NCBI GenBank assembly: GCA_000306725.1
Contig: CP003083.1
Span: 2,258,042-2,282,041 of the forward strand
Source of the DNA: Methanolobus psychrophilus R15
GTDB taxonomy: Archaea > Halobacteriota > Methanosarcinia > Methanosarcinales > Methanosarcinaceae
Length of the DNA stretch: 24,000 bases
Reading direction: 5' to 3'
The first letter of the stretch is position 1, and the number at the start of each line of letters is the position of its first letter. The notes below the pieces were generated by a model, which saw only the letters and a program-made list of their open reading frames with translations, had not been told where the DNA came from and did not search any database. Shown here piece after piece: positions 3,551-24,000 of this stretch. Made by a program: the position numbers and the translations under genes.

Positions 3551-3605
3551 CATGTATATTGAAGTATCTATAGATGTCTTATCAGCTAGTGTTATAAGTG
3601 AAACC

Positions 3606-5343: not shown

Positions 5344-5344
5344 G

Positions 5345-5422
5345 CCAGACGGTGTCATATTTATATAGTATTGTCAATATATTATAATCTCGATTATATT
5401 CTTGAATTCACGACCAGACGGT
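5345..5422 (+). repeat. Exact 9-nt direct repeat CCAGACGGT (5345-5353 and 5414-5422) bracketing a 60-nt AT-rich spacer between flaF and flaG
   Basis: Read directly from the sequence. The first copy starts 2 nt after the flaF stop. The second ends 8 nt before the flaG ATG. The spacer contains the TATA-like ATTTATATAG and TCAATATATTATAAT. Confidence 0.6.
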
Positions 5423-5430
5423 AAGAAAGC

Positions 5431-5937: not shown

Positions 5938-5947
5938 CGGAGAAAAA

Positions 5948-6643: not shown

Positions 6644-6663
6644 GGTCCGTGGAAGGTGATTGA

Positions 6664-8325: not shown

Positions 8326-8334
8326 GTGAGCTTC

Positions 8335-10062: not shown

Positions 10063-11064
10063 CTATTTCCTCATCTCTTTTTTAATGTGATCTACAATTG
10101 CACAGGTCATCTCTTTAGTTGTATAGGCTCCGCCCAGGTCGGGAGTAATTATGCCCTCAGTAAGAGCAGCATCCACAGCTTCCTCAACGAGTGCAGCTTC
10201 CGACATGTGCCCCTGCCATTCCAGCATCATCTTAAGGCTCAGTATGGCAGCGATAGGGTTTGCTATGCCTTTTCCTGCGATATCCGGGGCACTTCCGTGA
10301 ACGGGTTCGAAGAACGCGTGGTTGGTGCCGATATTAGCGCTGGGTAGTAATCCGAGGCTGCCGACGAGTGCTGCAGACATATCGCTGAGGATATCCCCGA
10401 AAAGGTTGGTTGTGACTATCACATCGTATTTTTCAGGCGAGCTGATAAGTTTATAGGCCATTGTGTCCACTAGCTCGTCACTGTAGTCAACACCGTGCAA
10501 AGCCGCTGTCTCGCGGCAGACATCCAGGAAGAGTTTGTCGGATTTCATTACATTGGATTTATGGACAATAATGATCCTGTTTTTTCTTTCCTTTGCCAGT
10601 TTACAGGCGTAGGCGGCTATCCTCTCCGAGCCCTTGCGGGTGATAACTCTTTTTGTCCAGGAAGTATCCTGCCCGATTTCCTCTATTCCTGAATAAAGCC
10701 CTTCGGTATTTTCCCTGACGATCACGAAATTGAAATTACTTCTGTCAAGGATACCTCTCACAGTGGGCAGCGGCCTTATCGGGCGGATGTTGGCATACAT
10801 GTCAAGCTCTTTCCGGATGGTCAGGAGCACACTCTTATAGTTGGGATCAGGCGGGGTTGTGACAGCTCCAAAGAGTATGCAGTCACATCCTTTCAGGACC
10901 TCAAGATCCTCATCGGTAATAGCCTGGCCGGTCTTCTCCCATTTGCCATATCCCAGTTCCACAGGCACTTTCTCAACATCCAGTCCGAGCGCGTCCAGCA
11001 CCTCTACGGCCGCAGGGATCACTTCCTTCCCAATCCCATCACCCTCAATAACAGCAAGTTTCAA
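10063..11064 (-). CDS. Isopropylmalate/homoisocitrate dehydrogenase family enzyme (LeuB or methanogen AksF; context favours AksF-type)
   Basis: 333 aa. The family is marked by MKLAVIEGDGIGKEV at the N-terminus and FEPVHGSAPDIAGKGIANP. The start must be TTG (11064-11062), because an in-frame TGA lies three codons upstream. GAGGTGAT SD sits 3 nt upstream. I cannot separate LeuB from AksF by eye. Confidence 0.85.
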   Translation of the reverse strand: MKLAVIEGDGIGKEVIPAAVEVLDALGLDVEKVPVELGYGKWEKTGQAITDEDLEVLKGCDCILFGAVTTPPDPNYKSVLLTIRKELDMYANIRPIRPLPTVRGILDRSNFNFVIVRENTEGLYSGIEEIGQDTSWTKRVITRKGSERIAAYACKLAKERKNRIIIVHKSNVMKSDKLFLDVCRETAALHGVDYSDELVDTMAYKLISSPEKYDVIVTTNLFGDILSDMSAALVGSLGLLPSANIGTNHAFFEPVHGSAPDIAGKGIANPIAAILSLKMMLEWQGHMSEAALVEEAVDAALTEGIITPDLGGAYTTKEMTCAIVDHIKKEMRK

Positions 11065-11957
11065 TCCATCACCTCAACATTAGTTAAGAAGTTGTCCTGC
11101 CCCTTTAATTCCCTTATCAGGTCCCACACAGCACTGGCCACGAAGAACTCGGATGCTCCCCAGTGTACCACAGCGCCTTTGATACCCTTTATTGTTACAA
11201 TGCCTGACTTTTCCGAACGGCAGCATCTTGTTATAAAAGGCCTTGAAGGCTTAAATATATCCGACTTAAAGGGGCAGATATTCACAAAAGAGTAATCGAT
11301 CCCTGGAAATCTTGACTCGAAAAGGCTTCTCGATATTTCACATCCTACAAGTAGCGACCCATCCTCTGTGATCACATCGGAGTCAAGGCACTTACCATCC
11401 AGTCCCGATGAAGAGCATGGGAATACCGTTCCTTCTCCTTCAAATCGCCGCAGGTCTGTAAGGTTCTCCGAGAACTTCACTGCAAGGTCCCCGAACACCC
11501 CGCTTGCCTCAAGCCTCCTTATAACACTGGAAAGCCATGATGGCTCGGGTGGAACGACATCCACTATTTCGATATCAAGGATGGCTGATAGGTCCGGCTT
11601 GTGCACAAAGGTCACATGCATATCAATGCCTGTGAATATCACCGTGTTGACAATTCCCTTGCAGAGCTCATGTGCAGTTTCAATCAGAAGGGCACGGTCC
11701 TTGATGTTGAGTTGCCTGCCATACTTAATGATTTCCTCACCGCCGGCTATTCTCTCAAGAGAGCTGACATCCCGCAGGAGCTGGTCCCCTGTCTGGCTGA
11801 CCCGGTACAGAATGTATGTATCAGTCTCATCACCGCAGGAACAAAAGTTCTCTTCGATCATGTAGTCAGTGAGGAAATAGATGCGTCTGTCAGCGTCATC
11901 GGGAATGGGGTGAGTGACCCCCACATTCTTGTACTCTTGAGGAAAGATCATAGCCAT
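11061..11957 (-). CDS. Cys-rich conserved-looking protein of unknown function (9 Cys in 298 aa)
   Basis: This is the longest ORF in the interval. It is co-oriented with both neighbours. Its TGA overlaps the downstream TTG start (TTGA, 11061-11064). It begins 28 nt after the upstream gene's stop. Cys motifs are CSC, PCSSSG, GKC, GCE, ICP and RCCRS. I recognise no family. Confidence 0.6.
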   Translation of the reverse strand: MAMIFPQEYKNVGVTHPIPDDADRRIYFLTDYMIEENFCSCGDETDTYILYRVSQTGDQLLRDVSSLERIAGGEEIIKYGRQLNIKDRALLIETAHELCKGIVNTVIFTGIDMHVTFVHKPDLSAILDIEIVDVVPPEPSWLSSVIRRLEASGVFGDLAVKFSENLTDLRRFEGEGTVFPCSSSGLDGKCLDSDVITEDGSLLVGCEISRSLFESRFPGIDYSFVNICPFKSDIFKPSRPFITRCCRSEKSGIVTIKGIKGAVVHWGASEFFVASAVWDLIRELKGQDNFLTNVEVMD

Positions 11958-11985
11958 ATTGCAACTATCCGTATCAATTTAGATC

Positions 11986-12471
11986 TCATTCTTTTGCCGC
12001 AGCTTTCCTGTGCGCCACAAGTCCGCCATCGGTCAGTATTTCCAGCAGGAAGGCCGGTAGTTTGTTTCCATGACAGGTCCTTCCGTTGACCCTGACAGTG
12101 CCTTCAAGGAGGTTTATCTCCATCTCGTCCCCTTCATTGCACTCAACATCCACCTCTATCAAAGGAAGCCCCACATTTATAGCGTTCCTGAAGAAGATCC
12201 TGGCAAAATACCTGGCAACAACGCAGGAAACGCCTGCATGTTTAAGTGCAAGGGGCGCCTGCTCCCTGGAAGAACCGCAGCCGAAGTTATCTCCTGCAAC
12301 TATTATGTCACCTTTGCTGACCTTGCGGGGGAACTCGGGGTCAATGCCTTCCATCGCATGGTCAGCAAACACCTGCATGTCCGTTGTACGAAGGTATTTC
12401 CCGGGTATGATGACATCCGTATCGATATCGTTCCCGAAAATCCATACTCTTCCTTTGATTATGCTGTCCAA
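11986..12471 (-). CDS. hacB: Aconitase-family small subunit, homoaconitase type (HacB/AksE) rather than LeuD
   Basis: 161 aa. [29 protein letters not shown] matches LeuD/HacB N-termini. The substrate-loop reads YLRT (nt 12385-12396), which is the homoaconitase form in Methanocaldococcus; the isopropylmalate isomerase form is [14 protein letters not shown] is present. The start is TTG (12471-12469), with GGTGAT SD 3 nt upstream and an in-frame TAA five codons upstream. Confidence 0.65.
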
Positions 12472-12593: not shown

Positions 12594-15104
12594 TCAGACC
12601 TCTATCACATTTCCATCCAGTACTGCGCGCTCACTGACACTTACCTGCTGGGTAACGTTCCCGTGACTTATCGTGTAAGCACCTGTGGGCCTTACGGCGA
12701 ACTGGGTCTCTCCCGGGATTGGTCCCTCTGTTGAATAGGGCACCGTGAAGGAGTACGTGCCATCAGATGTGGCAGACTGGGAGTAGGTGAATGACCTACC
12801 CTGGTTTGTCTGAATGGTGTTGCTGATGGTCACGGTCTCACCTGCTGGTGCCGTACCTGTAATGGTTGCGCCTTCGACATACTCGAATGTCTTGACGTAA
12901 CCTGAATCTGTCAGGGGCAGGTTGCCTCCAAAGAGCACGTTATACACGTTCTTGTATCCCGTCTCGCTGGTGTATCCTGCTGGTGCTGCAGGAGACTCAT
13001 GCACAAGGCGATATTGTTGCAGGCCGCTGCCATCAAAGATATGCAGCCTCGCTTCCATTGAGTCGTAGTACCTCTGTCCGGGCACATACTGGGAACCGCT
13101 GTCAGTCTGAACTGAGACATAGTAACCCTCCGTGTCCAGTGTCCAGGCCGTCATTGCATAGAACTTACCTGTTGCCATCTCCACATCGGAGATGATGTAG
13201 CGTGATGCAACTTTGTCCGGGTCCGGATGGATCGCATTAAGGACCGCCGTTGCTTCCTCTTCAGAAGGTGCTGTGAAGAATGGCGCAGCTCCCGGCCTGT
13301 TCTCTTCATCGATACTTACAGAGCGCCCTCCAATACCTGCCTGGAAGGGATTGGCATTTGGCAGCCGCCGCGCAATGGTCTCTATCTCATGCCCATAATC
13401 CCACCAAGACATCACTCCATATGCCGTGTCAGGATAATCAAAGCGTTCTCCACTTTCAGGTGCTTCGTATATCTTAAGGAAATCCATGCCCGGGTCTGGT
13501 GTGTTGGCTTCCATCCAGAAGAGCGAGTCAAGCCAGTAGCCATTCATTCCGCTGGCATACTTTGACTGCTCCATGGCAAGGCTGTAACTGGGATAGGCTA
13601 CGAGCAACAACAGCATGAATATGGTAATTAAATGGGCTACCTTTATGTTCTTGCTCAAGAAGCCGGGAATCTCACCCATGGATTTTACTTTGTCATGGTA
13701 GGCAGCTTCAATCTTTTTCCATCCGACAAGGTCAAGGACCTTTGCTGCGAAGTATCCTGAGAGTAATGCGACGTTGATTGCATAATAGTATGCAAAACGG
13801 TTCTGCCCATATATGGCAAGGAGCAGTATGAAGGTCCAGACAAGGACGAGCAGCTCTTCAGGTCTTTTTTCCTTCCTGACACTGTAGGCCAGCATGAACA
13901 CAGCGATTATTGAAATGAAGAAGCCCATGGCGAAGTTGTACCAGACAGAGCTGAGGGTGAACGCACCTCCGCGGTAGAAGATGGAGGAGACCTCACCGAT
14001 GGTGGAATGGCCGCCAGTCTTCACTGAAAATATAAAATCTCCGATGCCTGCTATCGAATTAAATATTGACGGAGAGGCTATTCTTATTGCCAGAAGCCCC
14101 ACCACTATTGTTGCGATAAGTGCCAAGGGGTAGTAAAAAGGCTTCATTCCCTTATCGATGAGTACTTTATAAACAATACTCATATACACGAAAGCAAAAA
14201 TCGCGGCAAATGCTGTTGCGACATGGAACCATGAATAATGCAGTGCATTGAAGCCTATTTCCCAGTTCACAAAAGGAAGGACAGGCAATAGTCCTACTAC
14301 AAACGTAATAATTCCTACAATTTCTAGATATTCAGTCGGTTTTTTGTTAAAGTAATCTACACTATACTGCACTGCTGCAAACACGACAATGATCATGCCG
14401 AACATGGGAGCGCCCGGCCATGTAAGCTGGTAGGCTGCATACATAAATCCTGCCAGAATTGCATATATTACTGGTCTGGTGGATTCTTTGTTCCTGTCCT
14501 GCAACATCTTTAAGGAAAGGTTCCTCTTTTTTGCCTCGATGAGTGCAAGCATGAAGAACAGCATCAATAATGTACTGAACAGGATTTCTCCCACATGATG
14601 GTCAGTGAAGATGATTGTTGAACGGTTAAGGAATTGTCCGGGAGCTATGGCTAGAAGAAAGGCTGCCAAAGCACCTGTTTTCCTATCCTTCAAATGTTTG
14701 CCTATATAGTACACAGGAATCACTGTAAGAGAACCCAGAACGGCAGGGAAATAAGCTCCAATTGTATTTACAAGACCTGTATCTGGATTCCCAAACCCTA
14801 TAAACAGCGCTGTCAATGCGATCATGTGATCGAAAAGGGGGCCGAAGTGGATGTAAGAACCATTAGGGAAATTTGTTAAAGGGTTGTATAACACTCCGTG
14901 AGGATAGTTATGTAAGAGCACTTCAACCATGCGCATGTGGTATAGGGGATCATTGCTGAATCTTACAAAACCGTTTGGCAGGAATACACTATCTGCAGGA
15001 CGTATGCGAATGATGAATGCAATTATTGCTGAAACTATGACTGCCAATAAGCATGGCCAGCAAGTTTTGTCTTTTATGGAGCCTGTTATTTTATCAAATA
15101 CCAT
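12594..15104 (-). CDS. aglB: Archaeal oligosaccharyltransferase AglB (STT3 family)
   Basis: 836 aa. The N-terminal half is polytopic membrane. The WWDYG catalytic motif (MSWWDYGH) is encoded at nt 13392-13406. The C-terminal domain is soluble and beta-rich. Confidence 0.92.
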   Translation of the reverse strand: MVFDKITGSIKDKTCWPCLLAVIVSAIIAFIIRIRPADSVFLPNGFVRFSNDPLYHMRMVEVLLHNYPHGVLYNPLTNFPNGSYIHFGPLFDHMIALTALFIGFGNPDTGLVNTIGAYFPAVLGSLTVIPVYYIGKHLKDRKTGALAAFLLAIAPGQFLNRSTIIFTDHHVGEILFSTLLMLFFMLALIEAKKRNLSLKMLQDRNKESTRPVIYAILAGFMYAAYQLTWPGAPMFGMIIVVFAAVQYSVDYFNKKPTEYLEIVGIITFVVGLLPVLPFVNWEIGFNALHYSWFHVATAFAAIFAFVYMSIVYKVLIDKGMKPFYYPLALIATIVVGLLAIRIASPSIFNSIAGIGDFIFSVKTGGHSTIGEVSSIFYRGGAFTLSSVWYNFAMGFFISIIAVFMLAYSVRKEKRPEELLVLVWTFILLLAIYGQNRFAYYYAINVALLSGYFAAKVLDLVGWKKIEAAYHDKVKSMGEIPGFLSKNIKVAHLITIFMLLLLVAYPSYSLAMEQSKYASGMNGYWLDSLFWMEANTPDPGMDFLKIYEAPESGERFDYPDTAYGVMSWWDYGHEIETIARRLPNANPFQAGIGGRSVSIDEENRPGAAPFFTAPSEEEATAVLNAIHPDPDKVASRYIISDVEMATGKFYAMTAWTLDTEGYYVSVQTDSGSQYVPGQRYYDSMEARLHIFDGSGLQQYRLVHESPAAPAGYTSETGYKNVYNVLFGGNLPLTDSGYVKTFEYVEGATITGTAPAGETVTISNTIQTNQGRSFTYSQSATSDGTYSFTVPYSTEGPIPGETQFAVRPTGAYTISHGNVTQQVSVSERAVLDGNVIEV

Positions 15105-15127
15105 ATGCTAACATCTCTTCTTTTTTA

Positions 15128-16267
15128 TTATTGTTCCTCTTTCTGGTGTAGAGTATATCTTGCATCTTCAATCGCTTCCCAAGAACCTGCAGTTGGTATT
15201 ATGAATGAGAAATTCATAACGAGTTGTGTTGTCACAAACGAAATCAATAGATTCCCTATTTTAGGTATTGCGATTAATATCAATAATCCTATATATAACG
15301 GTTCTTCGAGTATAACAAAGGGATATAGAACTGTTATGCCCAAAATGACGACGGGTGAGATAATGTGTGTAAGAAGTGCATATGGATAGATTATTTTACC
15401 AAATTTCCCTTTCCCAAGAAGGTCCAAATTGTCTAGGTACACTCTCCTTAAACCGTTTATTCTTTTCATTTTCTGGACCGTTCGCCCTTTTAGTGTAAGC
15501 GGGACACGCTCGTATACTATGGCGTTCTTATTATAAACCACTCTATAACCCAGATGGATGATCTTGTAGAGCATATCTGAATCATCCGCATAGGCGTTTG
15601 GATTTATCCTTATTTTCTGGAGAAGCCTCGTCCTGAAGCTCATAAGTGGTCCGTTACACACAGAAACAGAATATATGTTGCTCTCACCCTGTCTCCATAG
15701 GTCGAAAACGGACCGATATGAATCCTCATGTGATTTCGATATTCTTGTTCTGTCAGATACGATAACTATCTTTCCTGTAACTCCGCCCACTTTCGGATCA
15801 GCATACTCCCTCACGACCTGCAACAGGGAATCCTCTTTCAATATTGCATCTGCATCAGATATAACTGTTATCTCAGTTGTGATCTTTGAAAAGATCCAGT
15901 TCAAGCCTCTGGCCTTACCTTTGCCACCTTCGTTTTTAATAATGATGGTCTTGAACCCATTTTTGTCTATGGACCCCAACGCGCTCTTTTCTGAACTATC
16001 GGTGGAATAATCATCCACTATTATCACTTCAAGCTTGTCTTGTGGATAATTTAATTTATATGTATTCTCTATCTTTTCTTTGATGACCTTCTCTTCGTTA
16101 TACATTGGTATTATTAACGTGACAGTTGGAAGATTATCAATATCCGGTAATACTGTACTTGACTTGGAATAGATATGCATGATAATAGTGTATGAGGCAA
16201 AAAGAATTATCTCAAATAGAACAAGGACCTGCCAAATAACTAAAGGATCGATTATATTAAGCAACAT
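15128..16267 (-). CDS. Membrane-anchored family-2 glycosyltransferase (GT-A fold)
   Basis: 379 aa. An N-terminal TM helix is followed by PTVTLIIPMYNEE, IIVDDYSTDSS and the VISDADA DxD-type motif. Several TM helices lie at the C-terminus. It sits 23 nt upstream of aglB on the same strand. Confidence 0.85.
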   Translation of the reverse strand: MLLNIIDPLVIWQVLVLFEIILFASYTIIMHIYSKSSTVLPDIDNLPTVTLIIPMYNEEKVIKEKIENTYKLNYPQDKLEVIIVDDYSTDSSEKSALGSIDKNGFKTIIIKNEGGKGKARGLNWIFSKITTEITVISDADAILKEDSLLQVVREYADPKVGGVTGKIVIVSDRTRISKSHEDSYRSVFDLWRQGESNIYSVSVCNGPLMSFRTRLLQKIRINPNAYADDSDMLYKIIHLGYRVVYNKNAIVYERVPLTLKGRTVQKMKRINGLRRVYLDNLDLLGKGKFGKIIYPYALLTHIISPVVILGITVLYPFVILEEPLYIGLLILIAIPKIGNLLISFVTTQLVMNFSFIIPTAGSWEAIEDARYTLHQKEEQ

Positions 16268-16327
16268 TATTTATTACCTTTTATAATTATTCAGTTTTTA
16301 CATTATTTCTTTCAGATAATGGTCCTG

Positions 16328-17803
16328 TCAGTGCATATTCAATTTCCATTTGATTTTCCTAGCAAGATAAGCCAACTTGAATAAAAATTTTGAAAATAAC
16401 TCATTTGCCAACATCTTTGCTTTAATCCTTTGAAGATGGGGGTTTTTGAGATACTTGCCCATGAAAGTCCCCTGTCTTACTGATTCCGGCTTATAGTACA
16501 GGAATTGATAGCCTTTTACACTTTGCCAGTATGCGAACTTGATAGCTCCTGTCCTTTTAGGTCGATTAAGTTCCTGCTCTATCAATCTTATTATGTCATT
16601 GCGGTCTTTCGGTATGTAGCAACCTTCAACATCTTCATATGTCGTTCTGCCGATCAAGATGGATGGTTTACCCCAGAATACACTTTCAATTCCTATTGTT
16701 GAACCAAAGGTAATAATCTTTTCACATGCATCCATCAGTTCATAGGAATCAATTTTAGAATCAGCAGGGATTATAAAGAGGTTTGCTGCTTTCAGTTCAC
16801 TCAACTCTTTTATCTGGGTATTCTTCAAACCTTTAAGATTCGGATGTATCCTCAGATAGAACGTAATATTTTGATTGATTTCTGAATGTATGATCGAATC
16901 GATAGCTTCGGTCTGAGTCCTGTAATAAGGGTTTTCCCATCCTTCTATCGCTTCGAACTCATCTTGGGATGAGATGTAAATAGCAATGTTCCTCTTATGG
17001 GGATTAAAACCCTCAGGCAGGTTTCCTTTGATCTGGGACTTAGTGAATGAATACCAACTCTGGTCTTTTCCGCCTCTGCGTTCTTCAAACCAAGAGATTG
17101 CTATCTTTTCCTTTTTAGCGTCGTCTGGCTCGCTATCCCAACATGTGTCTATCTCTTTTTTCTGATAGTCCAGATTATGAGGATATGTGTTTTCTGTCAA
17201 AGAATATTTATTGAGGACCCCCGCCCTTTCATGCACATAGGTTCTTATTTCCATGTCCTGCGCGGCTCTCAAGGCGGGTCTCAGTGGTACATATCTTCCG
17301 TTGAACAAATAGAATATATCCGGCTTTATAATCTCAAGATGATGCCGGGTCGCGTTATAAATTGCTACTGACATCATCAAGTTCTTTTCCAGAAAGAACC
17401 TGTACTGTGTCACGTCGATTTTAGGTTCTCTCACCATGCTGATAAGGGAAGAAGCGACTGCCATCCCCACATCTATTCCACCTACCTTGAAGCTCTTCAA
17501 TTCTTCCATTGTTGAAAAAACAGGTAAGTTGAGGTCTGTCATAAAATCATTTAAAGCAAGATCATGTCTGTTCTCTTCAGGGAGATGTATGATATTCAAT
17601 CCCCTGTCACTTCTGGATTTGCACAGGATACATCTGAGCTTGAGATGGCTGGGATTAGGTTCACAATATGGTAATTCTCCTGAACATTGGATCACATGGA
17701 CCTCGTCACCTGCATCGATATGTCTGGCAGCGATTTCAAGGTCGGTTGCAAGGTGTGGCACCCAGTCTGCAAAGGGCATATAGATAAGGATCTTCATTTT
17801 CAT
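16328..17803 (-). CDS. Putative GT-B glycosyltransferase resembling capsule KpsS/KpsC-type (CMP-ulosonic-acid-dependent) enzymes; candidate nonulosonic-acid transferase
   Basis: 491 aa. Patterns reminiscent of the Capsule_synth family are FNGRYVPLRPALRAAQDMEIRTYVHERAG, IAIYISSQDEFEA...LRIHPN (an HP motif) and ITFGSTIGIESVFWGKPSILIGRTTYEDVEG. An N-terminal C-x6-C-x10-C-x2-C cluster is encoded at nt 17621-17686. The family call is from memory of motifs and is not verified. Confidence 0.45.
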   Translation of the reverse strand: MKMKILIYMPFADWVPHLATDLEIAARHIDAGDEVHVIQCSGELPYCEPNPSHLKLRCILCKSRSDRGLNIIHLPEENRHDLALNDFMTDLNLPVFSTMEELKSFKVGGIDVGMAVASSLISMVREPKIDVTQYRFFLEKNLMMSVAIYNATRHHLEIIKPDIFYLFNGRYVPLRPALRAAQDMEIRTYVHERAGVLNKYSLTENTYPHNLDYQKKEIDTCWDSEPDDAKKEKIAISWFEERRGGKDQSWYSFTKSQIKGNLPEGFNPHKRNIAIYISSQDEFEAIEGWENPYYRTQTEAIDSIIHSEINQNITFYLRIHPNLKGLKNTQIKELSELKAANLFIIPADSKIDSYELMDACEKIITFGSTIGIESVFWGKPSILIGRTTYEDVEGCYIPKDRNDIIRLIEQELNRPKRTGAIKFAYWQSVKGYQFLYYKPESVRQGTFMGKYLKNPHLQRIKAKMLANELFSKFLFKLAYLARKIKWKLNMH

Positions 17804-18059
17804 CCCATAATATATAATTAATTTGGATTCTTTTGTAATAATTATTGTGTATGTGAGGCCATTGAATGCATATTAACTAGAACACTATTTTTCGTTCAAT
17901 ACTATATATCTGAGTAAATAACCTTCAAATCCTAAACTACTAAGATTTTTTGCTCCTGAATTCTTACTTAAATTACGAGCTGCAAGATGCAGAGACTTTT
18001 TGCGGCCAAGTTTAATGACTTAAAGTGTTCTATACCTTCAATGTCTGTTCCAATTCTAC

Positions 18060-18071
18060 CAGAAAAACTAA
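18060..18071 (-). terminator. Weak oligo-T signal (TAGTTTTTCTGG on the minus strand) just after the methyltransferase stop
   Basis: A T5 run lies 8 nt after the stop codon at 18075-18077. It opens a 271-nt non-coding gap. Confidence 0.2.
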
Positions 18072-18074
18072 GTA

Positions 18075-18998
18075 TCATTTTTCATTTCCTTTATTTTTCA
18101 GTTTTGCATAAATTATGCAAGTTCTTCCAATTCCTAATTTCGCTAGTGATGTATATATGTTTCTTCGAAGCCTGTCGTCAATATTCCCTTCGAGTTTCAT
18201 CCTTCTTTCATGACATTTACTACCAATTTCATTGTTATCAATGTAGTTATCCTCCATTAGTAAAAACAATTCCATAGGGAAATCTGCGGTTTGCAAATAA
18301 ATTTCGAATCCACACTTGTCCAGTAACTGGGTTAAACTGGAGAAATTAAAATAGTTGATGTGGTCAGGTATTGCCAGCCAGTAGTGGGATTTGCATATTT
18401 TATTTTTATGTGTTTGTAACTGGAGAACGTTGAAATCATTTGGAACTTCTACACAAATCATTCCTGATTCATTTAGTAAATCTTTACAAATAGTTATTAT
18501 TTCAAGGGGATTTGGTATATGTTCAAGTACACATTTCAAATTGATAAAATCAAAGTATCCATACCATTTTTTTTCTATAAAATCCTCAAGTGTAGTATTA
18601 AATACATTAGTGTTTAAAAAATTAGCCATTTCACTTGCTGTGCATGAAGGTTCTATTCCAAATGTTTCCCAGCCATTTTCCTCCATGAATTTAAGGAAAA
18701 GTCCATTTCCACAACCAACATCTAGTAACCGTTTGTTACCACCAATATCATTTATGTAATTATTTAATATGTCAAATTTATCCTGATACCATAAATTTGA
18801 CCATTTTATCTCTTTAACCTCTTTTTCATAGTCTAAGAGTTTTGGTTTTTTTTCTTGATAATATTGCTTTTCATAGTATTTTTTAATCTCTTCTTTTGAT
18901 GGAATTGGATATAGGTGTTTGAATCCGCAAAAGTCACATTCAATTATTTCCACTTCCCCATTTGTTGCCACTACTTTCCCTTTGTGCATAGCATCCAC
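18075..18998 (-). CDS. Class I SAM-dependent methyltransferase with N-terminal Cys pair (possible Zn ribbon)
   Basis: 307 aa. Motif I is RLLDVGCGNGLFLKFMEENGW. The N-terminus has ECDFCGFKHLYPIP. It lies in the glycan cluster. The true start may be Met4 (nt 18989), given that GAGGTGG abuts ATG 18998. Confidence 0.8.
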   Translation of the reverse strand: MDAMHKGKVVATNGEVEIIECDFCGFKHLYPIPSKEEIKKYYEKQYYQEKKPKLLDYEKEVKEIKWSNLWYQDKFDILNNYINDIGGNKRLLDVGCGNGLFLKFMEENGWETFGIEPSCTASEMANFLNTNVFNTTLEDFIEKKWYGYFDFINLKCVLEHIPNPLEIITICKDLLNESGMICVEVPNDFNVLQLQTHKNKICKSHYWLAIPDHINYFNFSSLTQLLDKCGFEIYLQTADFPMELFLLMEDNYIDNNEIGSKCHERRMKLEGNIDDRLRRNIYTSLAKLGIGRTCIIYAKLKNKGNEK

Positions 18999-19118
18999 CT
19001 CTTAAGTTCATTTTACAATCAAATGTTTAATAAGTAAATTCTCTGACTAATTGTTTTATAATATTCGAAGCAACAATCGTAATAACAATTGAGACTCCGG
19101 TACTTTTTCTTTTATGTT

Positions 19119-20204
19119 TTATTCTATACAATCCCATCTTAAAGGAGTACCTTTCTTAATATCTTTCCTTGCTTTTTTCTGTAGTATTTCAGTTAAAAAT
19201 CTAGTATGTAACCCGAAACCAGGTCTTATAGATTTAATATTTTTTTCAGTGAATTTTTCTCCAGTGTTAATATCTTCCACAACAAATAAGGATCTTGAAA
19301 AATCCCTGCTTTTCTTGGCTTTTTCTGTTAGCTCATAAGTCACTTCACCGAGTGCTTTTTCTGTATCTCTGACAGCCTTCACCATTGATTCGAATTCATG
19401 GAAATCAAGTGAGAATGCAGCATCGGGCCCTCCCATATTCCTGTCAAGGATGAAATGCTTCTCAATTATTTTTGCACCAAGCGCAACAGATGCGATAGGT
19501 ACGGCTATCCCAAGGGTGTGATCAGAAAGCCCGACGACTGTTCTGAAAGTGTCGATTATGTTCGGTATTGTTTTCAGATTGAGTTCTTCGAGTGGCGCAG
19601 GATATGCAGATGTGCATTTCAATAGTGCTATCTGCTGATTCCCCATCCTTTTACAGGAAGCAATGGCTTCCTCTATGTCCGAGAGTGTTGCGATACCTGT
19701 GGATATGATAACCGGTTTTCCTTTTGATGCGACATATTCTATGAGTGGGATGTCTGTTATTTCAAAGGATGCGATTTTGTAGGCAGGGACTTCCATCTTT
19801 TCAAGAAGGTCAACTGCAGTTGTGTCAAAAGGAGAGGAGAAACAGATAAGTCCAAGCTCTTCAGCTATCCTTTTAAGCTCCGGTTGCCATTCCCAGGGGG
19901 TATATGCTTCCTTATAGAGATTATAAAGTGTCTTCCCATCCCACAGGGTTCCATGTTCTATCTGAAAGAACTCATTGTCACAGTCGATCGTAATTGTATC
20001 AGGTGTATATGTCTGAAGCTTTACAGCATCAGCGCCCGATTCTTTAATGGCTCTTATTGTATCGACTGCAAGGTCGAAATTCTGGAGGTGGTTCGCTGAA
20101 ACTTCCGCTATTATGAATACCGGATGTCTTTCACCAATGCATCTGTCAGCAATTCTGATTTCCATGTTTCCCTCAATTGTATATTTGTTAGCATTGATAG
20201 TCAT
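19119..20204 (-). CDS. pseI: Nonulosonic acid synthase of the NeuB family, pseudaminic acid synthase (PseI) type
   Basis: 361 aa. It shows PVFIIAEVSANH, GADAVKLQTYTPDTIT, LWDGKTLYNLYKEAYTPWEW, KIASFEITD, LLKCTSAYPAP and GLSDHTLG. The C-terminal SAF-like tail is IKSIRPGFGLHTRFLTEILQKKARKDIKKGTPL. By recall it closely parallels Campylobacter PseI. Confidence 0.8.
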   Translation of the reverse strand: MTINANKYTIEGNMEIRIADRCIGERHPVFIIAEVSANHLQNFDLAVDTIRAIKESGADAVKLQTYTPDTITIDCDNEFFQIEHGTLWDGKTLYNLYKEAYTPWEWQPELKRIAEELGLICFSSPFDTTAVDLLEKMEVPAYKIASFEITDIPLIEYVASKGKPVIISTGIATLSDIEEAIASCKRMGNQQIALLKCTSAYPAPLEELNLKTIPNIIDTFRTVVGLSDHTLGIAVPIASVALGAKIIEKHFILDRNMGGPDAAFSLDFHEFESMVKAVRDTEKALGEVTYELTEKAKKSRDFSRSLFVVEDINTGEKFTEKNIKSIRPGFGLHTRFLTEILQKKARKDIKKGTPLRWDCIE

Positions 20205-20233
20205 TTACTTTAGTAATTTAGTTCCCGTCTTCC

Positions 20234-20866
20234 TCATTGCATGTTGTCGTGCAGGATTCGTGCTATCTGCTGCTTTTCATGGTCGTTCAGCTCATTCCTG
20301 ACCTGGAAATGAGGCATGCCCAGATTCTTCGCTCCCTGTATATCTGCAATGGGGTCATCTCCTATCATCAAGGCTTCAGAGGCCTCTATGTCGTAAAATT
20401 GCAGGACCTGCGTGAAGTATTTAGGGTGGGGTTTTGCAAAGTCCAATCCATCCTGTTGTGAATAAAATATAGTATCAAAATATCTTTCAAGCCTTAACGC
20501 CTCAACTTTCATTTTCTGAGGCATCAACCATCCGTTGGTAAGCAGACAAAGCTTGTATTCCTTTGATAGTTTCCAAAGGAAGACTTCTATGTCTTCCCTC
20601 AGGGATATTTCCGGGCAGTGCTCTCGATAGACATCCACTAACTTGCTGATAATACAGCTATCAATGTTCAGTTTCCTACACAGATAATCGAAATTGTTCC
20701 CTCTTCCATTGAGAACGAATGATTCTAATAGTGAAGAGTAAACTGCGTAATGATTCAGGGACTTTTCCTTCGCTAAGAAAATAGCAACGGCTTTAAACCC
20801 ACTGATGACGTATTCTCTTTCATTGTACAACGTGTTATCCAGATCAAAGATAATTATTTTTGTCAT
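20234..20866 (-). CDS. HAD-superfamily hydrolase (phosphatase-type)
   Basis: Motif I is IIFDLDNTLY (DxDxT). Motif II is LLTNG. Motif IV is IGDDPIADIQGA. The preferred start is ATG 20866 (MTKIIIFDLD). The ORF track's 20890 start is a GTG. Either way it overlaps the ATP-grasp 3' end (stop 20844-20846). Confidence 0.8.
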   Translation of the reverse strand: MTKIIIFDLDNTLYNEREYVISGFKAVAIFLAKEKSLNHYAVYSSLLESFVLNGRGNNFDYLCRKLNIDSCIISKLVDVYREHCPEISLREDIEVFLWKLSKEYKLCLLTNGWLMPQKMKVEALRLERYFDTIFYSQQDGLDFAKPHPKYFTQVLQFYDIEASEALMIGDDPIADIQGAKNLGMPHFQVRNELNDHEKQQIARILHDNMQ

Positions 20867-21818
20867 GTGCATCAATAAATATGTCCTCACTATACCGTAG
20901 CATCATGAGACCTTCTTTGAAGGGCTCCACGTCAATCTTGCCCTTATTCAGTAGTTTGATCAGATAAAGAGGAGTGTTTCTGCCAGCTGCAAAACTTAAA
21001 TTAGATGCTCCTCCGAAACGGGGATTCACTTCGATGAATTTTACCTCCCCTAATCCAGTTTTAAAGCATTGGATGACATTATGGCCTATTAATTTCATTT
21101 TTGTAGCAAGTAAAATGCACAGGTCTGTTATTTCCTGATCATTCACTGTGATTCCGACCTTCGATTCTCCTGAGACGACCTTTATTCTAACCCTAGGGAC
21201 CAGGCTGATAAAATTCCCATCAAGATCTGAAAAATAATCTATACTGTACTCGGTCCCTTCTATATATTCCTGTATTATGGGGTCATCAATATTTCCAATG
21301 AGTTCGTGCAATTCTCCCTTGTCTTTAACAATATAGAATTTTCTGGCACCGGCACCTGTCTTTGATTTGAGTACACAAGGATAAGTAATGTCATCAGAGA
21401 TCTGTGTCCATGACGTTATTGCTGGTAAATCATTTTCCTGTAAGAATCTGAAGAATTCAAACTTATCTGAGCACATATTTGCGACCATGGGATCAGGAAC
21501 CATGACCTTTGCCATAGTTCTGTCTTCAATATGTTTTTTGTGTTTTGACAGGTAAAGTACATCCTCATCCCTTGTTGGAACAATAAGGCGCACTTTGTTC
21601 TCAGTACACAGTTTCTCTATGAAATCCAGATAGTTAGGACTATTCAGTCTTGGGCATATCGTATACTCATCGCAGAAGTAAAGTGCTGCAGAAAGGGAGT
21701 CAATATCTATCCCTATTACTTTCCCTTCATTCTTTTCTTCTGCCAGCGCTTTTTTGAATTCTTTTACAAGCAGCACTTTCGTAGAAACACTGGTGATAAG
21801 GATTGTGGTTTCAGTCAT
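20844..21818 (-). CDS. ATP-grasp family ligase
   Basis: About 325 aa. It has a pre-ATP-grasp N-domain, then CVLKSKTGAGARKF, IIQEYIEGTEYSIDYF and the Mg/ATP-site motif KFIEVNPRFGG. The preferred start is ATG 21818 (MTETTILI), 1 nt after the SDR stop. The longest ORF starts at 21842. Confidence 0.8.
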   Translation of the reverse strand: MTETTILITSVSTKVLLVKEFKKALAEEKNEGKVIGIDIDSLSAALYFCDEYTICPRLNSPNYLDFIEKLCTENKVRLIVPTRDEDVLYLSKHKKHIEDRTMAKVMVPDPMVANMCSDKFEFFRFLQENDLPAITSWTQISDDITYPCVLKSKTGAGARKFYIVKDKGELHELIGNIDDPIIQEYIEGTEYSIDYFSDLDGNFISLVPRVRIKVVSGESKVGITVNDQEITDLCILLATKMKLIGHNVIQCFKTGLGEVKFIEVNPRFGGASNLSFAAGRNTPLYLIKLLNKGKIDVEPFKEGLMMLRYSEDIFIDAHDKNNYL

Positions 21819-21819
21819 C

Positions 21820-22764
21820 TCAATGATTTTTTTTCTTTTCATAACTGATTATCTCTCTGATTCCTGATTCGAGATCGTATTGAGGAGACCAAGACAATTC
21901 TTTTTGCATTTTACTTATATCTGCACAACTTGATTCATATAGCTCTTTTCTGGATTCGATTGCATTGACATTGAAATCCCCTAGGTTCTTTTTTAAGATT
22001 GTAATAACATCTTTGACTTTAGAAGATACACCGGTTCCTAAATTGTAGATGCCTGTAGCATTATTGCTCTCACCTAGTTTTAATAGTCCTGCAGCTACAT
22101 CCCTTGCAAATATATAGTCAAATCGATTATCTTCGTTGAACAAAATAATATCCTTTTCTTGAAGGATATCTCTTATCCACCGGGAAATTATGTCACGTGA
22201 TCCTTTTCCATATACTCTGAATATTCTTGCAGACACAGTATCAAAAGGATATTCATTATTCCGGCTAAGGAATTCCAGATCAGCTTCTGTCTGGAGCTTT
22301 GCAACACCAACCGTGTTCCTGGGACTGATGGTAGAACTTTCAGTCAAATGGTTTTGTTCTTCAATGTTGTTATACTGTTCTTTGTCGTATATCAGATAAC
22401 TGGATGCAAAGATAACCTTTTTCAAAGAAGGGTATTTGATAATCTGATCGATCAGATAATGAGATGCAAGGATATTATTCTTGAAATTGGATTCCCAGAA
22501 GTCCTTTCTTTCTTCGGTTCTTTCAAAATCGGCGGCTAAATGAAAAACGTATTCAGGTTCAAAGCGGAAAAGGAACTGGTTATCAGGTCTTGAAAGATCC
22601 ATCTGGAAGTATTCTATATTACTCAGTTCTGAAGGCTTTTCCTGAAAATCCACACATCTTATTATGGCTCCCTGCTTCCTGAGCATATCAATGAGCTCTT
22701 TTCCAATTACTCCTGCTCCGCCGGTTACTAGTACTTTCTTGTTGTTGAAAAACATGATGATCAC
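21820..22764 (-). CDS. Extended SDR (NAD-dependent epimerase/dehydratase family), atypical: catalytic Tyr position is Val
   Basis: 314 aa. The Rossmann motif is VLVTGGAGVIGKEL. HLAADF and FASSYLIYD are present. The PxxxYxxxK position reads PRNTVGVAK (Val at nt 22309-22311, Lys at 22297-22299). RIFRVYGKGS follows. Confidence 0.8.
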   Translation of the reverse strand: MIIMFFNNKKVLVTGGAGVIGKELIDMLRKQGAIIRCVDFQEKPSELSNIEYFQMDLSRPDNQFLFRFEPEYVFHLAADFERTEERKDFWESNFKNNILASHYLIDQIIKYPSLKKVIFASSYLIYDKEQYNNIEEQNHLTESSTISPRNTVGVAKLQTEADLEFLSRNNEYPFDTVSARIFRVYGKGSRDIISRWIRDILQEKDIILFNEDNRFDYIFARDVAAGLLKLGESNNATGIYNLGTGVSSKVKDVITILKKNLGDFNVNAIESRKELYESSCADISKMQKELSWSPQYDLESGIREIISYEKKKNH

Positions 22765-22765
22765 C

Positions 22766-23308
22766 TTATAAATATTCCGACCTTAACATCGAATGCATCA
22801 CACTGTCATGGTATTCGCCATTTTTGAAAACGTGTTTTCTGAGGATACCATCTCTTTTCAGTCCGAAGCTTTCCAGTGTTTTGATGTGACTTTCCCTGTA
22901 AACATAGGTCTCTGTATATATCTTATTCAAATTGAGCTGCCCGAATCCATATTGTGAGAGCATTTTGAGGACTGCAAGCAGCGTTTTATCATGTACGGTA
23001 TTGTCGCATTCAAGATCAGTGTCCAGTAAAAAAGATAATTCTCCTCTTGATGATATGTAATCAATATTGGTAAGACCACAATAACCAACGAACCTGTCAT
23101 TCTCATCGATTATTGAAAAAAGGACTGAATCATTACTATTGGCAATGATATCCCAGTATTTCTCCTGGTTTCTGTCAGTAAGGGGTTTCCATTGACGAAG
23201 TATGGACATTTGCTCATTGCGCCATTTTTTTATATTTTCCAGATCACCAAACTCTATGTTCGATAAGTATAGACCATCTGCTTCCAATATTCTAGCTCTC
23301 ATGAGCAA
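22766..23308 (-). CDS. GNAT-family N-acetyltransferase, PseH-like by context
   Basis: 180 aa. An N-terminal WRNEQ motif is followed by a GNAT core (VGYCGLTNIDYISSRGELSF ... YGFGQLNLNKIYTETYVYRESHIKTLESFGL). It lies between a cytidylyltransferase and nonulosonic-acid genes. Its stop is 1 nt before the SDR start. Confidence 0.65.
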   Translation of the reverse strand: MLMRARILEADGLYLSNIEFGDLENIKKWRNEQMSILRQWKPLTDRNQEKYWDIIANSNDSVLFSIIDENDRFVGYCGLTNIDYISSRGELSFLLDTDLECDNTVHDKTLLAVLKMLSQYGFGQLNLNKIYTETYVYRESHIKTLESFGLKRDGILRKHVFKNGEYHDSVMHSMLRSEYL

Positions 23309-23343
23309 ATCTCCTATAATATGTTAACGAAAAGCATTACATT

Positions 23344-24000
23344 TTACTTTGAATGTACCGCTGTTTGCATGATATGTTCGTTTATCTTTATTAACTCTGG
23401 TTGTTTATCCAATAATTCCTTGATGTCTTTTAGCAAAAACATTTTTTTTGTAGGGTATAGATGTTGATAGATTTTTGTGATTAAGTCAAAGTCTTCTACT
23501 GTGTCCAGTGTAAGTCGTAAGTGACTCAAGTCTTCTTCATTTGATACATTATGCTGCTTAAAAAAATCAGTGTGTTCTCTTATATATGGTGTTACATGTT
23601 CTCTTTCATAATCTTCTTTTGCTTCGTTCCATGCTCTTTCAAGCACATTGAACGTGAAAATTTCTGTATCCATTCCTCTTGGATATGTAAGCTTTAAAGT
23701 ATTGGAACAGTAATCACAATCTTTATTCAGAAACTCTTCAATAACCTTATCTATTATGGTAGGGTCGATTAATGGGCAATCTGATGTGATTCTAATTATT
23801 ATATCAGCTTTAGTCTGTACAGCAGCTTTATAATACCTGTCAAGGACGTCGCTCTCACTTCCTCTCAACACGATGATTTTGTCACTATATTGTTTTATCG
23901 TGATGTCAATAATGTCGTTTTCGTCACCATATGGTATAGCGATGACAATTTCATCAATTAATGTGGAACTAGATATTCTGTCGATGTCCCAAAGTATTAT
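23344..24000 (-). CDS. SpsF/PseF-like acylneuraminate-type cytidylyltransferase; 5' end outside window
   Basis: The frame stays open upstream of the ORF track's GTG at 23871 all the way to nt 24000. My hand translation there is IILWDIDRISSSTLIDEIVIAIPYGDENDIIDITIKQYSDKIIVLRGSESDVLDRYY. This is followed by IIIRITSDCPLIDP and EREHVTPYI, which is typical of SpsF-type CTP-transferases. Confidence 0.7.
   Translation of the reverse strand: MILWDIDRISSSTLIDEIVIAIPYGDENDIIDITIKQYSDKIIVLRGSESDVLDRYYKAAVQTKADIIIRITSDCPLIDPTIIDKVIEEFLNKDCDYCSNTLKLTYPRGMDTEIFTFNVLERAWNEAKEDYEREHVTPYIREHTDFFKQHNVSNEEDLSHLRLTLDTVEDFDLITKIYQHLYPTKKMFLLKDIKELLDKQPELIKINEHIMQTAVHSK

Follow-up and report, generated by a model that had tools for sequence, protein, structure and literature searches.

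The CMP-pseudaminic acid (Pse) pathway of Campylobacter and Helicobacter has as its output the O-glycosylation of flagellin. In Archaea, a Leg-type nonulosonate (LegB/C/G/I/F) has been experimentally shown to cap an AglB-dependent N-glycan in Halorubrum sp. PV6, where glycan genes lie near aglB (PMC6137143). The sps pathway of Bacillus subtilis makes Leg; it has SpsG, its precursors are UDP-linked, and SpsF serves the activation step (PMC7439481). Transfer of Pse or Leg has been genetically proven for Tannerella forsythia Tanf_01245 and TFUB4_00887 (BFO_1060 family). These enzymes share with the beta-Kdo transferases KpsS, KpsC and WbbB (GT107/GT99) a GT-B fold in which a variable N-terminal part is combined with a common C-terminal domain of the CMP-binding type carrying an HP motif (PMC5420450). 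For the modification of glycans, Campylobacter jejuni Cj1438C and Cj1435 provide an experimental precedent for an ATP-dependent amidoligase paired with a HAD phosphatase within a glycan cluster, with glucuronate and serinol phosphate as substrates (PMC11800397).

The window, a 24,000-nt stretch of the Methanolobus psychrophilus R15 genome, takes in the 11.4 kb at the downstream end of a low-G+C gene island that measures 25.6 kb and has about 22 genes, all on one strand. All ten ORFs that an earlier note had described in this part were found at their positions on the same (minus) strand, and their family assignments hold (Table 1). The island extends from ManC to aglB, with neighbours mostly overlapping or less than 60 nt apart. 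Within the window cluster, intergenic spacing ranges from -47 to +60 nt, barring the two largest gaps (271 and 120 nt), which flank the methyltransferase gene. Three gaps of 120–271 nt in the island could leave room for internal promoters. The G+C content drops from 0.45–0.50 outside the cluster to 0.31–0.44 within it, the methyltransferase gene standing at 0.314. Immediately past nt 24000 lie PseC, a small cupin and PseB, followed by a GDP-deoxy/C-methyl-sugar module, a flippase and TnpB. Gmd, SDRs and a sugar C-methyltransferase are among the island genes, and the flippase is of the Wzx/MurJ type. Overall, the island has the appearance of a variable locus for N-glycan genes.

Table 1. Features of the window, in order of position.
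Feature	Position	Strand	Evidence
Archaellum accessory operon (flaC/D/E fusion, F, G, H, I, J)	3552..9990	+	
Three housekeeping-type genes	10063..12471		
aglB, archaeal oligosaccharyltransferase, last gene of the island	12594..15104	-	TIGR04154 843.3 bits, cut-off 450
Membrane GT2 glycosyltransferase, 379 aa	15128..16267	-	Pfam Glycos_transf_2 83 bits; four hydrophobic segments
KpsS/KpsC/WbbB-like GT-B protein, 491 aa	16328..17803	-	Pfam Capsule_synth 26.8 bits, cut-off 20
SAM-dependent methyltransferase, tailoring	18075..18998	-	Methyltransf_23 85.7 bits
PseI-type nonulosonic acid synthase	19119..20204	-	TIGR03586 516.2 bits, cut-off 340.25
HAD-IA phosphatase-type hydrolase	20234..20890	-	HAD_2 84.5 bits
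ATP-grasp ligase, PylC-like N domain	20844..21842	-	PylC-like_N, ATP-grasp_3, ATPgrasp_Ter
Extended SDR	21820..22764	-	Epimerase family 107 bits
GNAT N-acetyltransferase, PseH position	22766..23308	-	Acetyltransf_4 74 bits
SpsF-type cytidylyltransferase, cut by window end	23344..24000	-	CTP_transf_3 134.9 bits, full length

Like the Campylobacter and Helicobacter pathway, the island encodes PseB, PseC and PseI equivalogs, together with an N-acetyltransferase and a cytidylyltransferase in the expected places. The synthase is the only NeuB-family member above the family cut-off in the genome. It passes TIGR03586 and falls short of the NeuB model (299.8 bits, cut-off 399.65), and its top match among solved structures is the pseudaminic acid synthase 8h2c (349 bits), ahead of SpsE (198 bits) and NeuB (162 bits), which bears out its earlier reading as a PseI-type rather than a NeuB/LegI enzyme. 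The prediction that pseB and pseC would lie just beyond nt 24000 also proved right once the contig was extended, as both are there above the curated cut-offs (PseB, 515.2 bits against 407.75; PseC, 464.7 bits against 423.5). A PseG equivalent had been expected there too, but none was found past nt 24000 or anywhere in the genome, where the top match reaches 22 bits and lies outside the island. In the control for this search, the PseG-like SpsG of B. subtilis exceeds the TIGR03590 cut-off. Searches for PseG were likewise negative in five congeners that share the module and in 14 of the 15 PseI-positive genomes among the 151 Methanosarcinales genomes searched. With no PseG for the sugar-freeing step, the pathway could be incomplete or otherwise routed. 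The missing PseG and the presence of an extra epimerase-like gene make the island pathway a variant of the known one, not a new kind.

The earlier labels 'PseH-like' and 'PseF-like' hold at the superfamily level but not at the equivalog level: against cut-offs of 93.1 for the PseH model and 205.7 for the PseF model, the GNAT and the cytidylyltransferase reach 34.5 and 38 bits, respectively. Unlike their Campylobacter and Helicobacter counterparts, the GNAT is generic, with diamine/spermidine N-acetyltransferases as its nearest structures, and the cytidylyltransferase is of the SpsF type. The latter, 246 aa when complete and reaching window-equivalent position 24084, is the genome's sole protein to pass the Pfam cut-off for CTP_transf_3. 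It resembles the activating enzyme of the B. subtilis sps pathway, from which the island differs in being Pse-type and in lacking a PseG. A further departure from the Campylobacter and Helicobacter pathway is the FdtA/QdtA/CapF-like cupin, which the earlier note did not foresee and which separates PseB from PseC in most PseI-positive loci. Its fold is close to that of NDP-4-keto-6-deoxy-sugar isomerases and epimerases (TM 0.65–0.75), and its HxH pair is invariant. Given the position of this cupin between PseB and PseC, the product may be a Pse stereoisomer, perhaps not pseudaminic acid proper.

The island also adds a block of SDR, ATP-grasp, HAD and methyltransferase genes to the Campylobacter and Helicobacter set. 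Alignment of the SDR to 4zrm places Val at the catalytic Tyr position (PRNTVGVAK), a change kept in all five congeneric copies. The ATP-grasp ligase scores 238 bits on a PRK12767-type model, under the cut-off, and its sole relative in the PDB is 2pn1, a protein of unknown function. The HAD hydrolase, at 105 bits, is under the cut-off of TIGR02253 and has PH1655 and N-acylneuraminate-9-phosphatase as PDB neighbours (~51 bits). For this pair, Cj1438C and Cj1435 offer a mechanistic model, the likeness being functional only. The methyltransferase is 74–85% identical at the equivalent position in four congeners. Since the four tailoring genes are conserved across congeners, the earlier proposal of a further modified sugar is plausible.

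The proposed wiring of the cluster to aglB agrees with our data, as the island ends in the only STT3-family oligosaccharyltransferase gene above cut-off in the genome and holds a flippase and candidate transferases. AglB has additional Pfam matches to STT3, AglB_core-like and AglB_L1 and a WWDYG motif at residue 567. It is oddly divergent, sharing ~51% identity with seven relatives, which show 60–91% identity among themselves. As the genome has one gene each above the family cut-offs, a working pathway would require the NeuB-family, CTP_transf_3 and STT3 genes to act together.

The best candidate for the CMP-nonulosonate transferase is the 491-aa protein encoded two genes away from aglB; its translation probably begins at M3, which would leave 489 aa. 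It hits the NCBIfam BFO_1060 family of the Tannerella transferases at 42 bits, far under the cut-off of 200, and matches solved Kdo transferases weakly (E 0.02–0.04). Its AF2 model (pLDDT 92) has a GT-B fold with the highest TM-score to KpsC (6mgb, 0.51), and its HP and S-x-G-x-E motifs align with those of KpsC and WbbB. It differs from the Tannerella and Kdo transferases in having an N-terminal Cys4 cluster and in belonging to an archaeal clade adjoining aglB; C38, C45, C56, C59, H318 and P319 are invariant or nearly so in its family. Genes of this family adjoin NeuB-family genes in archaea and one cyanobacterium, and across the loci compared the N-terminal half varies while the C-terminal HP domain is common. 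No close homologue was found in genomes G008 and G014; in G008, a 534-aa protein with the same HP-motif domain stands in for it.

The Pse module adjoining aglB is kept at 72–91% identity in four congeners. The order PseB, cupin, PseC, cytidylyltransferase, GNAT, PseI and, further on, KpsS-like, GT2, AglB also occurs in Methanococcoides methylutens, G074 and G127, and in G001, G006, G020, G074, G127 and Methanococcoides the GT2 keeps its place beside aglB and the KpsS-like gene. Identical gene order in four congeners and another genus indicates that this arrangement is not due to chance.

What we observed is the gene content, the family membership of PseB, PseC, PseI and AglB, the absence of PseG, two protein folds and conserved synteny; in the following scheme we infer each chemical step, the sequence in which tailoring occurs, the acceptor and the target proteins. 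On balance, the island probably makes a CMP-activated Pse-type sugar that is delivered to AglB for N-glycosylation. PseB, the cupin and PseC would turn UDP-GlcNAc into a UDP-4-amino-4,6-dideoxy-hexosamine, with epimerisation of the 4-keto intermediate as the probable role of the cupin. The GNAT would N-acylate the amino sugar, some enzyme other than PseG would release the free sugar, PseI would condense it with PEP, and the SpsF-type cytidylyltransferase would form the CMP-sugar. Tailoring by the Tyr-less SDR, the ATP-grasp ligase, the HAD phosphatase and the methyltransferase would probably add an amide-linked substituent, phosphorylated and then dephosphorylated, as well as a methyl group. 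The KpsS-like GT-B protein with its HP motif would move the sugar onto a dolichol-linked oligosaccharide assembled by the membrane GT2 and further island glycosyltransferases. The island flippase would translocate the glycan, and AglB would transfer it to Asn of surface proteins, an output that differs from the flagellin O-glycosylation of Campylobacter and Helicobacter. The predicted system would resemble that of Halorubrum sp. PV6, although it is Pse-type rather than Leg-type, its biosynthetic genes are contiguous with aglB, and a KpsS-like transferase candidate is identifiable.

A CMP-Pse-type sugar might instead be destined for a lipid-anchored or capsule-like polymer, an O-glycan or an exopolymer, with the adjacency to aglB reflecting a hot-spot for glycan genes. 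Bacterial members of the KpsS/KpsC superfamily use lipid acceptors for capsules, the nonulosonates in Methanoperedens enrichment biomass are unassigned to N-glycans (PMC11337218), and the Pse of M. smithii was never connected to a protein glycan (PMC6137143). Moreover, the Pse module of G008 stays at aglB with different transferases on the opposite strand. We nevertheless consider such a destination unlikely, since six genomes from three genera keep the KpsS-like, GT2 and AglB genes side by side in one orientation, a Wzx-type flippase but no Wzy-type polymerase or ABC exporter was seen in the island, and aglB is a common clustering site of Agl genes (PMC6137143). Less probable still is a pathway that is dead or yields UDP-3-amino-3,6-dideoxy-hexosamine through a ketoisomerase cupin, PseI and the cytidylyltransferase being relics or acting on another substrate. 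The nearest solved relatives of the cupin are indeed the 3,4-ketoisomerases QdtA, FdtA and WlaRA/B, an activity that would divert the intermediate from nonulosonate; the UDP-sugar would stay unreleased without PseG, and the GNAT is nearest to generic amine acetyltransferases. However, PseC and PseI score well above their equivalog cut-offs, and many genomes retain intact copies of PseI, the cytidylyltransferase and the HP-motif transferase at 59–91% identity, which suggests that purifying selection maintains a functional nonulosonate route. For 13 of the 15 genomes with PseI, no stop inside that gene was reported, and the recurrence of the PseG-less layout in 14 genomes of several genera is hard to square with decay.

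The KpsS-like protein could itself be the missing UDP-sugar hydrolase, a PseG/NeuC analogue, rather than a transferase. Foldseek E-values place UDP-GlcNAc 2-epimerases on top, hydrolysing NeuC among them, some family members (P0100, P0117) match Pfam Epimerase_2, and most PseG-less loci that we examined encode the protein or a distant relative of it. We give this assignment very little credence, as TM-scores to the epimerases are 0.23–0.35, against the higher value for KpsC, and alignment with CMP-Kdo transferases matches both its invariant HP motif and its S-x-G-x-E segment. The variable N-terminal half joined to a shared HP domain is the pattern of the Tannerella Pse/Leg transferases (PMC5420450), and G008 and G014 do without a close homologue.

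Between the archaellum accessory operon and aglB lie three housekeeping-type genes (Table 1), and the order KpsS-like, GT2, AglB, HacB-like, DUF7714, IsoDH, archaellum genes is also seen in Methanococcoides. The earlier note took archaellins and the S-layer to be probable carriers of the sugar; the link that we see between island and archaellum is positional only, a conserved synteny interrupted by unrelated genes. The archaellins themselves are encoded 1.78 Mb away by four genes, with just two to three sequons apiece.

The ten minus-strand genes that the earlier note had placed between 12594 and the end of the window were confirmed in the ORF list, and their labels were borne out by Pfam and NCBIfam scans (see table). 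The window corresponds to G000:C1:2258042-2282041 in the studied genome, a single contig of 3,072,769 bp. We retrieved a further 18 kb of this contig past nt 24000 (locus L001), where the minus-strand run continues. The complete island spans ~25.6 kb and ~22 genes on a single strand, with aglB as its final gene and a TnpB gene closing the other end. G+C content is 0.45-0.50 in the left part of the window and drops to 0.31-0.44 across the ten minus-strand genes. The position of TnpB at the distal edge of this low-GC island fits the border of a mobile or recombining island. A scan with sigma-70 promoter and terminator models, the sigma-70 model being not applicable to archaea, returned counts no higher than those of shuffled sequences.

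Features of the aglB island and its flank (window coordinates, unless marked L001; L001 features are listed in order away from the window)
Feature	Position	Strand	Basis or remark
Archaellum accessory operon	3552-9990	+	Single FlaC/D/E fusion, then FlaF, G, H, I, J
Isopropylmalate/isocitrate-dehydrogenase-family, DUF7714 and aconitase-small-subunit genes	10063-12471		Between archaellum operon and aglB
DUF7714 gene	11061-11957	-	303 bits; between aconitase-small-subunit and Iso_dh genes
AglB	12594-15104	-	TIGR04154, 843 bits (cut-off 450)
Membrane glycosyltransferase GT2	15128-16267	-	Pfam/NCBIfam; in the ten-gene run
KpsS-like protein, 491 aa	16328-17803	-	Weak Capsule_synth and BFO_1060-family matches
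Class-I methyltransferase		-	Pfam/NCBIfam
NeuB-family synthase		-	Pfam/NCBIfam
HAD hydrolase		-	Pfam/NCBIfam
ATP-grasp protein		-	Pfam/NCBIfam
Extended SDR		-	Pfam/NCBIfam
GNAT	22766-23308	-	Pfam/NCBIfam
CTP_transf_3 cytidylyltransferase		-	Interrupted by window end; 246 aa in full (completed from L001)
PseC	L001 93-1232	-	TIGR03588, 464.7 bits (cut-off 423.5)
Cupin, 148 aa	L001 1229-1675	-	Pfam FdtA and CapF/WbjC C-terminal domain
PseB, inverting UDP-GlcNAc 4,6-dehydratase	L001 1639-2622	-	TIGR03589, 515.2 bits (cut-off 407.75)
428-aa protein	L001	-	No family assigned
GDP-mannose-dehydratase-like SDR	L001	-	
607-aa protein	L001	-	Methyltransferase tail
Sugar C-methyltransferase	L001	-	
Wzx/MurJ-type flippase	L001	-	
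Gmd	L001	-	631 bits
Further SDR	L001	-	
Sugar-1-P nucleotidyltransferase	L001	-	
ManC	L001	-	
IS605-type TnpB	L001 14327-15466 (window-equivalent 38327-39466)	-	OrfB_IS605 and Cas12f1-like TNB domain; directly past ManC

PseB and PseC, which had been expected just past nt 24000, are both encoded there and score above their model cut-offs; the equivalog model identifies PseC as a C4 aminotransferase. Whether the synthase belongs with PseI or with NeuB/LegI was settled by equivalog HMM cut-offs and a ranking of PDB matches, and the PseI-type assignment made from the sequence stood. The synthase scored 516.2 bits with the PseI model TIGR03586 (cut-off 340.25) and 299.8 bits with the NeuB model, under the cut-off of 399.65. 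Among solved structures, it matched the pseudaminic acid synthase 8h2c with 349 bits, SpsE with 198 and meningococcal NeuB with 162. It is the sole NeuB-family gene in the genome. By definition, the product of a CMP-pseudaminic acid pathway is based on 5,7-diacylamido-3,5,7,9-tetradeoxy-L-glycero-L-manno-nonulosonic acid.

A PseG equivalent had also been predicted past nt 24000, and on this point the prediction failed: in L001 and the whole genome, the best match to the PseG model TIGR03590 reached 22 bits, at an unrelated locus, against a cut-off of 153.55. Control genomes scored above this cut-off, indicating that the search works. PseG was likewise not found in five congeners carrying the same Pse module (the PseB-cupin-PseC-cytidylyltransferase-GNAT-PseI core). 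In a wider sample of 151 Methanosarcinales genomes, 15 contained PseI above cut-off and four a PseG-like match at E<=1e-8; just one of these four is PseI-positive (G109), its PseI barely passing at 342 bits. TIGR03590 therefore recognised no PseG in 14 of the 15 PseI-positive genomes, and many of the genomes with PseI and without PseG are complete single contigs, which argues that the absence is a lineage-wide feature and not an assembly gap.

Several candidates for the missing enzyme were considered. Two PseG-like matches at genome 248.9-250.9 kb (22 and 20 bits, in proteins of ~417 aa) were rejected as far under the cut-off; they span positions 14-95 of the model only, and nothing matching them was retrieved at E<=0.001 from two relatives (G001 and G020). 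The 428-aa and 607-aa island proteins were also rejected as PseG, with no family match even at E 0.1 save the methyltransferase tail. Neither was found in the regions fetched around the Pse module of G008 and G001, and their motifs, compared by eye, look like those of distant GT-B glycosyltransferases. In this genome a HAD hydrolase lies directly upstream of PseI; its solved relatives include N-acylneuraminate-9-phosphatase, at just ~51 bits over the HAD core. Most relatives have a xylose-isomerase-like TIM barrel directly downstream of PseI. Accessory genes differ between locus variants, and no accessory family is universal.

A small cupin is encoded between PseB and PseC in the studied genome, in Methanococcoides and in the relatives G001, G006, G008, G014, G020, G074, G116, G127 and G162. 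Its Pfam FdtA score is 36.8 bits (cut-off 23). With Foldseek, its AF2 model (pLDDT 82.5) retrieved the 3,4-ketoisomerases QdtA, FdtA, WlaRA/B and FdtD (TM 0.65-0.75), with further matches to RmlC, NovW and the CapF cupin domain. The fold is that of a small cupin, and the catalytic pair of His residues, an H-x-H (H65/H67), is invariant. Because PseC is a high-scoring C4-aminotransferase equivalog, we favour a role for the cupin as a putative epimerase acting on the 4-keto intermediate. Given this extra enzyme, the final product may differ from Pse itself and be one of its stereoisomers. Four other PseI-positive loci have, instead of the cupin arrangement, a PseB-like gene (~45% identity) with a second extended SDR behind it, reminiscent of the Pen/Pal pair of enzymes in Bacillus thuringiensis. 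The longest-ORF start of the cupin is probably too long, as homologues are mostly 133 aa, which corresponds to a start at M16 and would abolish the 37-nt overlap with PseB.

The cytidylyltransferase reached 38.2 bits on the PseF equivalog TIGR03584 (cut-off 205.7) and 134.9 bits on Pfam CTP_transf_3, whose cut-off no other gene in the genome passes; by these matches it is SpsF-type. A Bacillus subtilis spsF mutant still makes legionaminic acid and loses its transfer (PMC7439481), which fits an activating role for the SpsF subfamily. The GNAT scored 34.5 bits on the PseH model TIGR03585 (cut-off 93.1) and among structures is nearest to diamine N-acetyltransferases; on this evidence it is a generic GNAT, in a position that suits the PseH role. 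In the SDR, the catalytic Tyr is replaced by Val (PRNTVGVAK vs PISPYGIAK of 4zrm), a change kept in all five congeneric copies, which argues for a selected feature and not a lesion. The sole relative retrieved for the ATP-grasp protein is a structural-genomics entry. As a working model for the ATP-grasp/HAD pair, we use the capsule decoration of Campylobacter jejuni, where an ATP-dependent amidoligase works with a HAD phosphatase (PMC11800397). By analogy, the ATP-grasp ligase would couple a phosphorylated partner to the sugar by an amide bond, and the HAD would strip the phosphate after ligation.

The KpsS-like protein matches Pfam Capsule_synth (26.8 bits; cut-off 20) and, below cut-off, NCBIfam BFO_1060 (42 bits; cut-off 200), the family of Tannerella forsythia Pse/Leg transferases. 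Deletion of the genes for these transferases leads to loss of the terminal nonulosonate, and the enzymes combine a conserved C-terminal HP-motif domain with a variable N-terminal part (PMC5420450). Homologues of the KpsS-like protein (~489 aa) are abundant in Methanosarcinales (source names include Methanomethylovorans, Methanococcoides, Methanoperedens and Methanocomedens) and also occur in cyanobacteria. An alignment of 37 homologues shows an HP dipeptide (H318, P319) and four N-terminal Cys residues with little or no variation. The AF2 model (pLDDT 92, pTM 0.90) has a GT-B fold with the HP motif in the nucleotide-binding half. A conserved donor-binding half joined to a variable acceptor half is as expected of a glycan-specific transferase, and leads us to read the protein as a candidate CMP-nonulosonate transferase. 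A minor rival, of low probability, is that it would be a hydrolase analogous to PseG or NeuC. UDP-GlcNAc 2-epimerases head the Foldseek matches by E-value, yet their TM-scores are just 0.23-0.35; the best TM-score belongs to KpsC 6mgb (0.51 over 298 columns). A profile search of PDB sequences matched solely KpsC and WbbB (E 0.02-0.04), in an alignment that includes both the HP motif and a segment S-x-G-x-E.

The genomic setting of the candidate transferase was also followed. In Methanococcoides methylutens the homologue lies between the Pse module and GT2-AglB, and in Leptolyngbya sp. PCC 7376 it is two genes from a NeuB-family synthase. No close homologue was found in G008, a relative with a full Pse module; a 534-aa protein is present there instead, and hhalign (probability 79%, E 1.5e-5) aligns its C-terminal part with the HP-motif domain. 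The longest-ORF start of the 491-aa protein is probably too long, the database copy being 489 aa, which would put the start at M3.

AglB is the only STT3-family protein encoded in the genome. It carries WWDYG at residue 567, nine hydrophobic segments and the Pfam STT3, AglB_core-like and AglB_L1 domains; the STT3 membrane domain and the AglB peripheral domains are both present. The gene order Pse module-KpsS-like-GT2-AglB-HacB-like-DUF7714-IsoDH-FlaJ-FlaI-FlaH is shared with Methanococcoides, and several congeners keep the identical order on the aglB side, which argues that the aglB/archaellum neighbourhood is ancient synteny. The aconitase-small-subunit/DUF7714/Iso_dh trio is kept beside aglB in Methanococcoides and congeners. 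Against the AglBs of Methanococcoides and of six congeners or relatives, AglB itself shows just ~51% identity, and those AglBs share 60-91% with one another. Identity reaches 65-81% for the neighbouring HacB-like, DUF7714 and IsoDH genes and 60-76% for GT2 and the KpsS-like gene next to aglB. By these identities, aglB alone looks replaced or fast-evolving. The archaellum accessory operon contains no archaellin genes. Four of these lie at genome 475.9-480.6 kb, 1.78 Mb distant, and each encodes 2-3 N-x-S/T sequons, some within the signal peptide. With archaellin genes distant and sequons few, nothing beyond synteny was found to link the sugar to archaellins, and the archaellum link of the island is positional only.

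We infer all steps of the locus chemistry, and read the locus as a variant of a known system type, with a single uninterrupted candidate route for a Pse-type sugar that starts at UDP-GlcNAc and ends at AglB. The interpretation in the earlier note was largely right, save for the lack of PseG, the additional cupin and the reduction of the archaellum connection to one of position. A more specific scheme, a PseG-independent route of the Methanosarcinales, is possible and, taken as a whole, rather unlikely. In this scheme, the cupin, dedicated to this task, would edit what PseB makes, and the sugar would be freed by a non-homologous hydrolase, the candidates being the HAD here and, in relatives, the PseI-flanking xylose-isomerase-like TIM barrel. 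The product would be a new Pse stereoisomer or derivative, with which KpsS-like, Cys4-bearing CMP-nonulosonate transferases, a previously unrecognised archaeal family, would cap AglB-dependent N-glycans. If true, a Pse-type sugar and a nonulosonate transferase would for the first time be defined in an archaeal N-glycosylation pathway.

According to the summary in PMC6137143, a survey of 122 archaeal genomes detected nonulosonate genes in <20% of them and a complete pathway in six species; the same paper reports Pse in Methanobrevibacter smithii extracts, with no tie to a glycoprotein. In the literature searched, the legionaminic acid of Halorubrum is the sole nonulosonate whose presence in an archaeal N-glycan has been shown structurally (PMC6137143). 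A Methanoperedens enrichment yielded sugars of Pse/Leg mass (PMC11337218). Pseudaminic acid is never mentioned in a 2024 review of archaeal N-glycosylation, where legionaminic acid occurs in the reference list only; the review also reports that the S-layer protein of Methanolobus psychrophilus is N-glycosylated in a condition-dependent way. The names attached to homologues assign the studied genome to Methanolobus. An N-glycosylated S-layer protein of this genus is already under study (PMC11407970, citing Li et al. 2020), and the locus is directly testable in this organism. The interest of the locus also lies in a PseG-less logic that recurs across genomes and in an identifiable candidate family of archaeal nonulosonate transferases. 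The enzymology questions raised are the replacement of PseG in 14 Methanosarcinales genomes, the action of the cupin on the 4-keto intermediate and the possible role of the KpsS-like family as the archaeal nonulosonate transferase. Answers would fill a gap among the transferase families of nonulosonate biochemistry, might supply a new hydrolase, and would aid the reading of Pse/Leg-type sugars from methanogen and ANME biomass.

In contrast to the synteny on the aglB side, island content upstream of aglB differs from species to species. In one draw of 24 congeners, just 10 carried a NeuB-family gene, and five of these 10 had close PseI orthologues (76-87% identity). Tailoring sets are swapped among the Methanosarcinales Pse loci L037 (G127), L036 (G116), L040 (G074), L038 (G099) and L042 (G084): some carry an aldo/keto reductase, a classical SDR and a TIM barrel, and others a class-III aminotransferase along with a formyltransferase-like protein. 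This swapping suggests many different N-acyl decorations upon one core. In the relative G006 (L022/L023), the methyltransferase and the KpsS-like gene are separated by ~7 kb of additional genes and the cytidylyltransferase shows just 44% identity, differences that we take as a further sign of probable mosaic exchange within the island.
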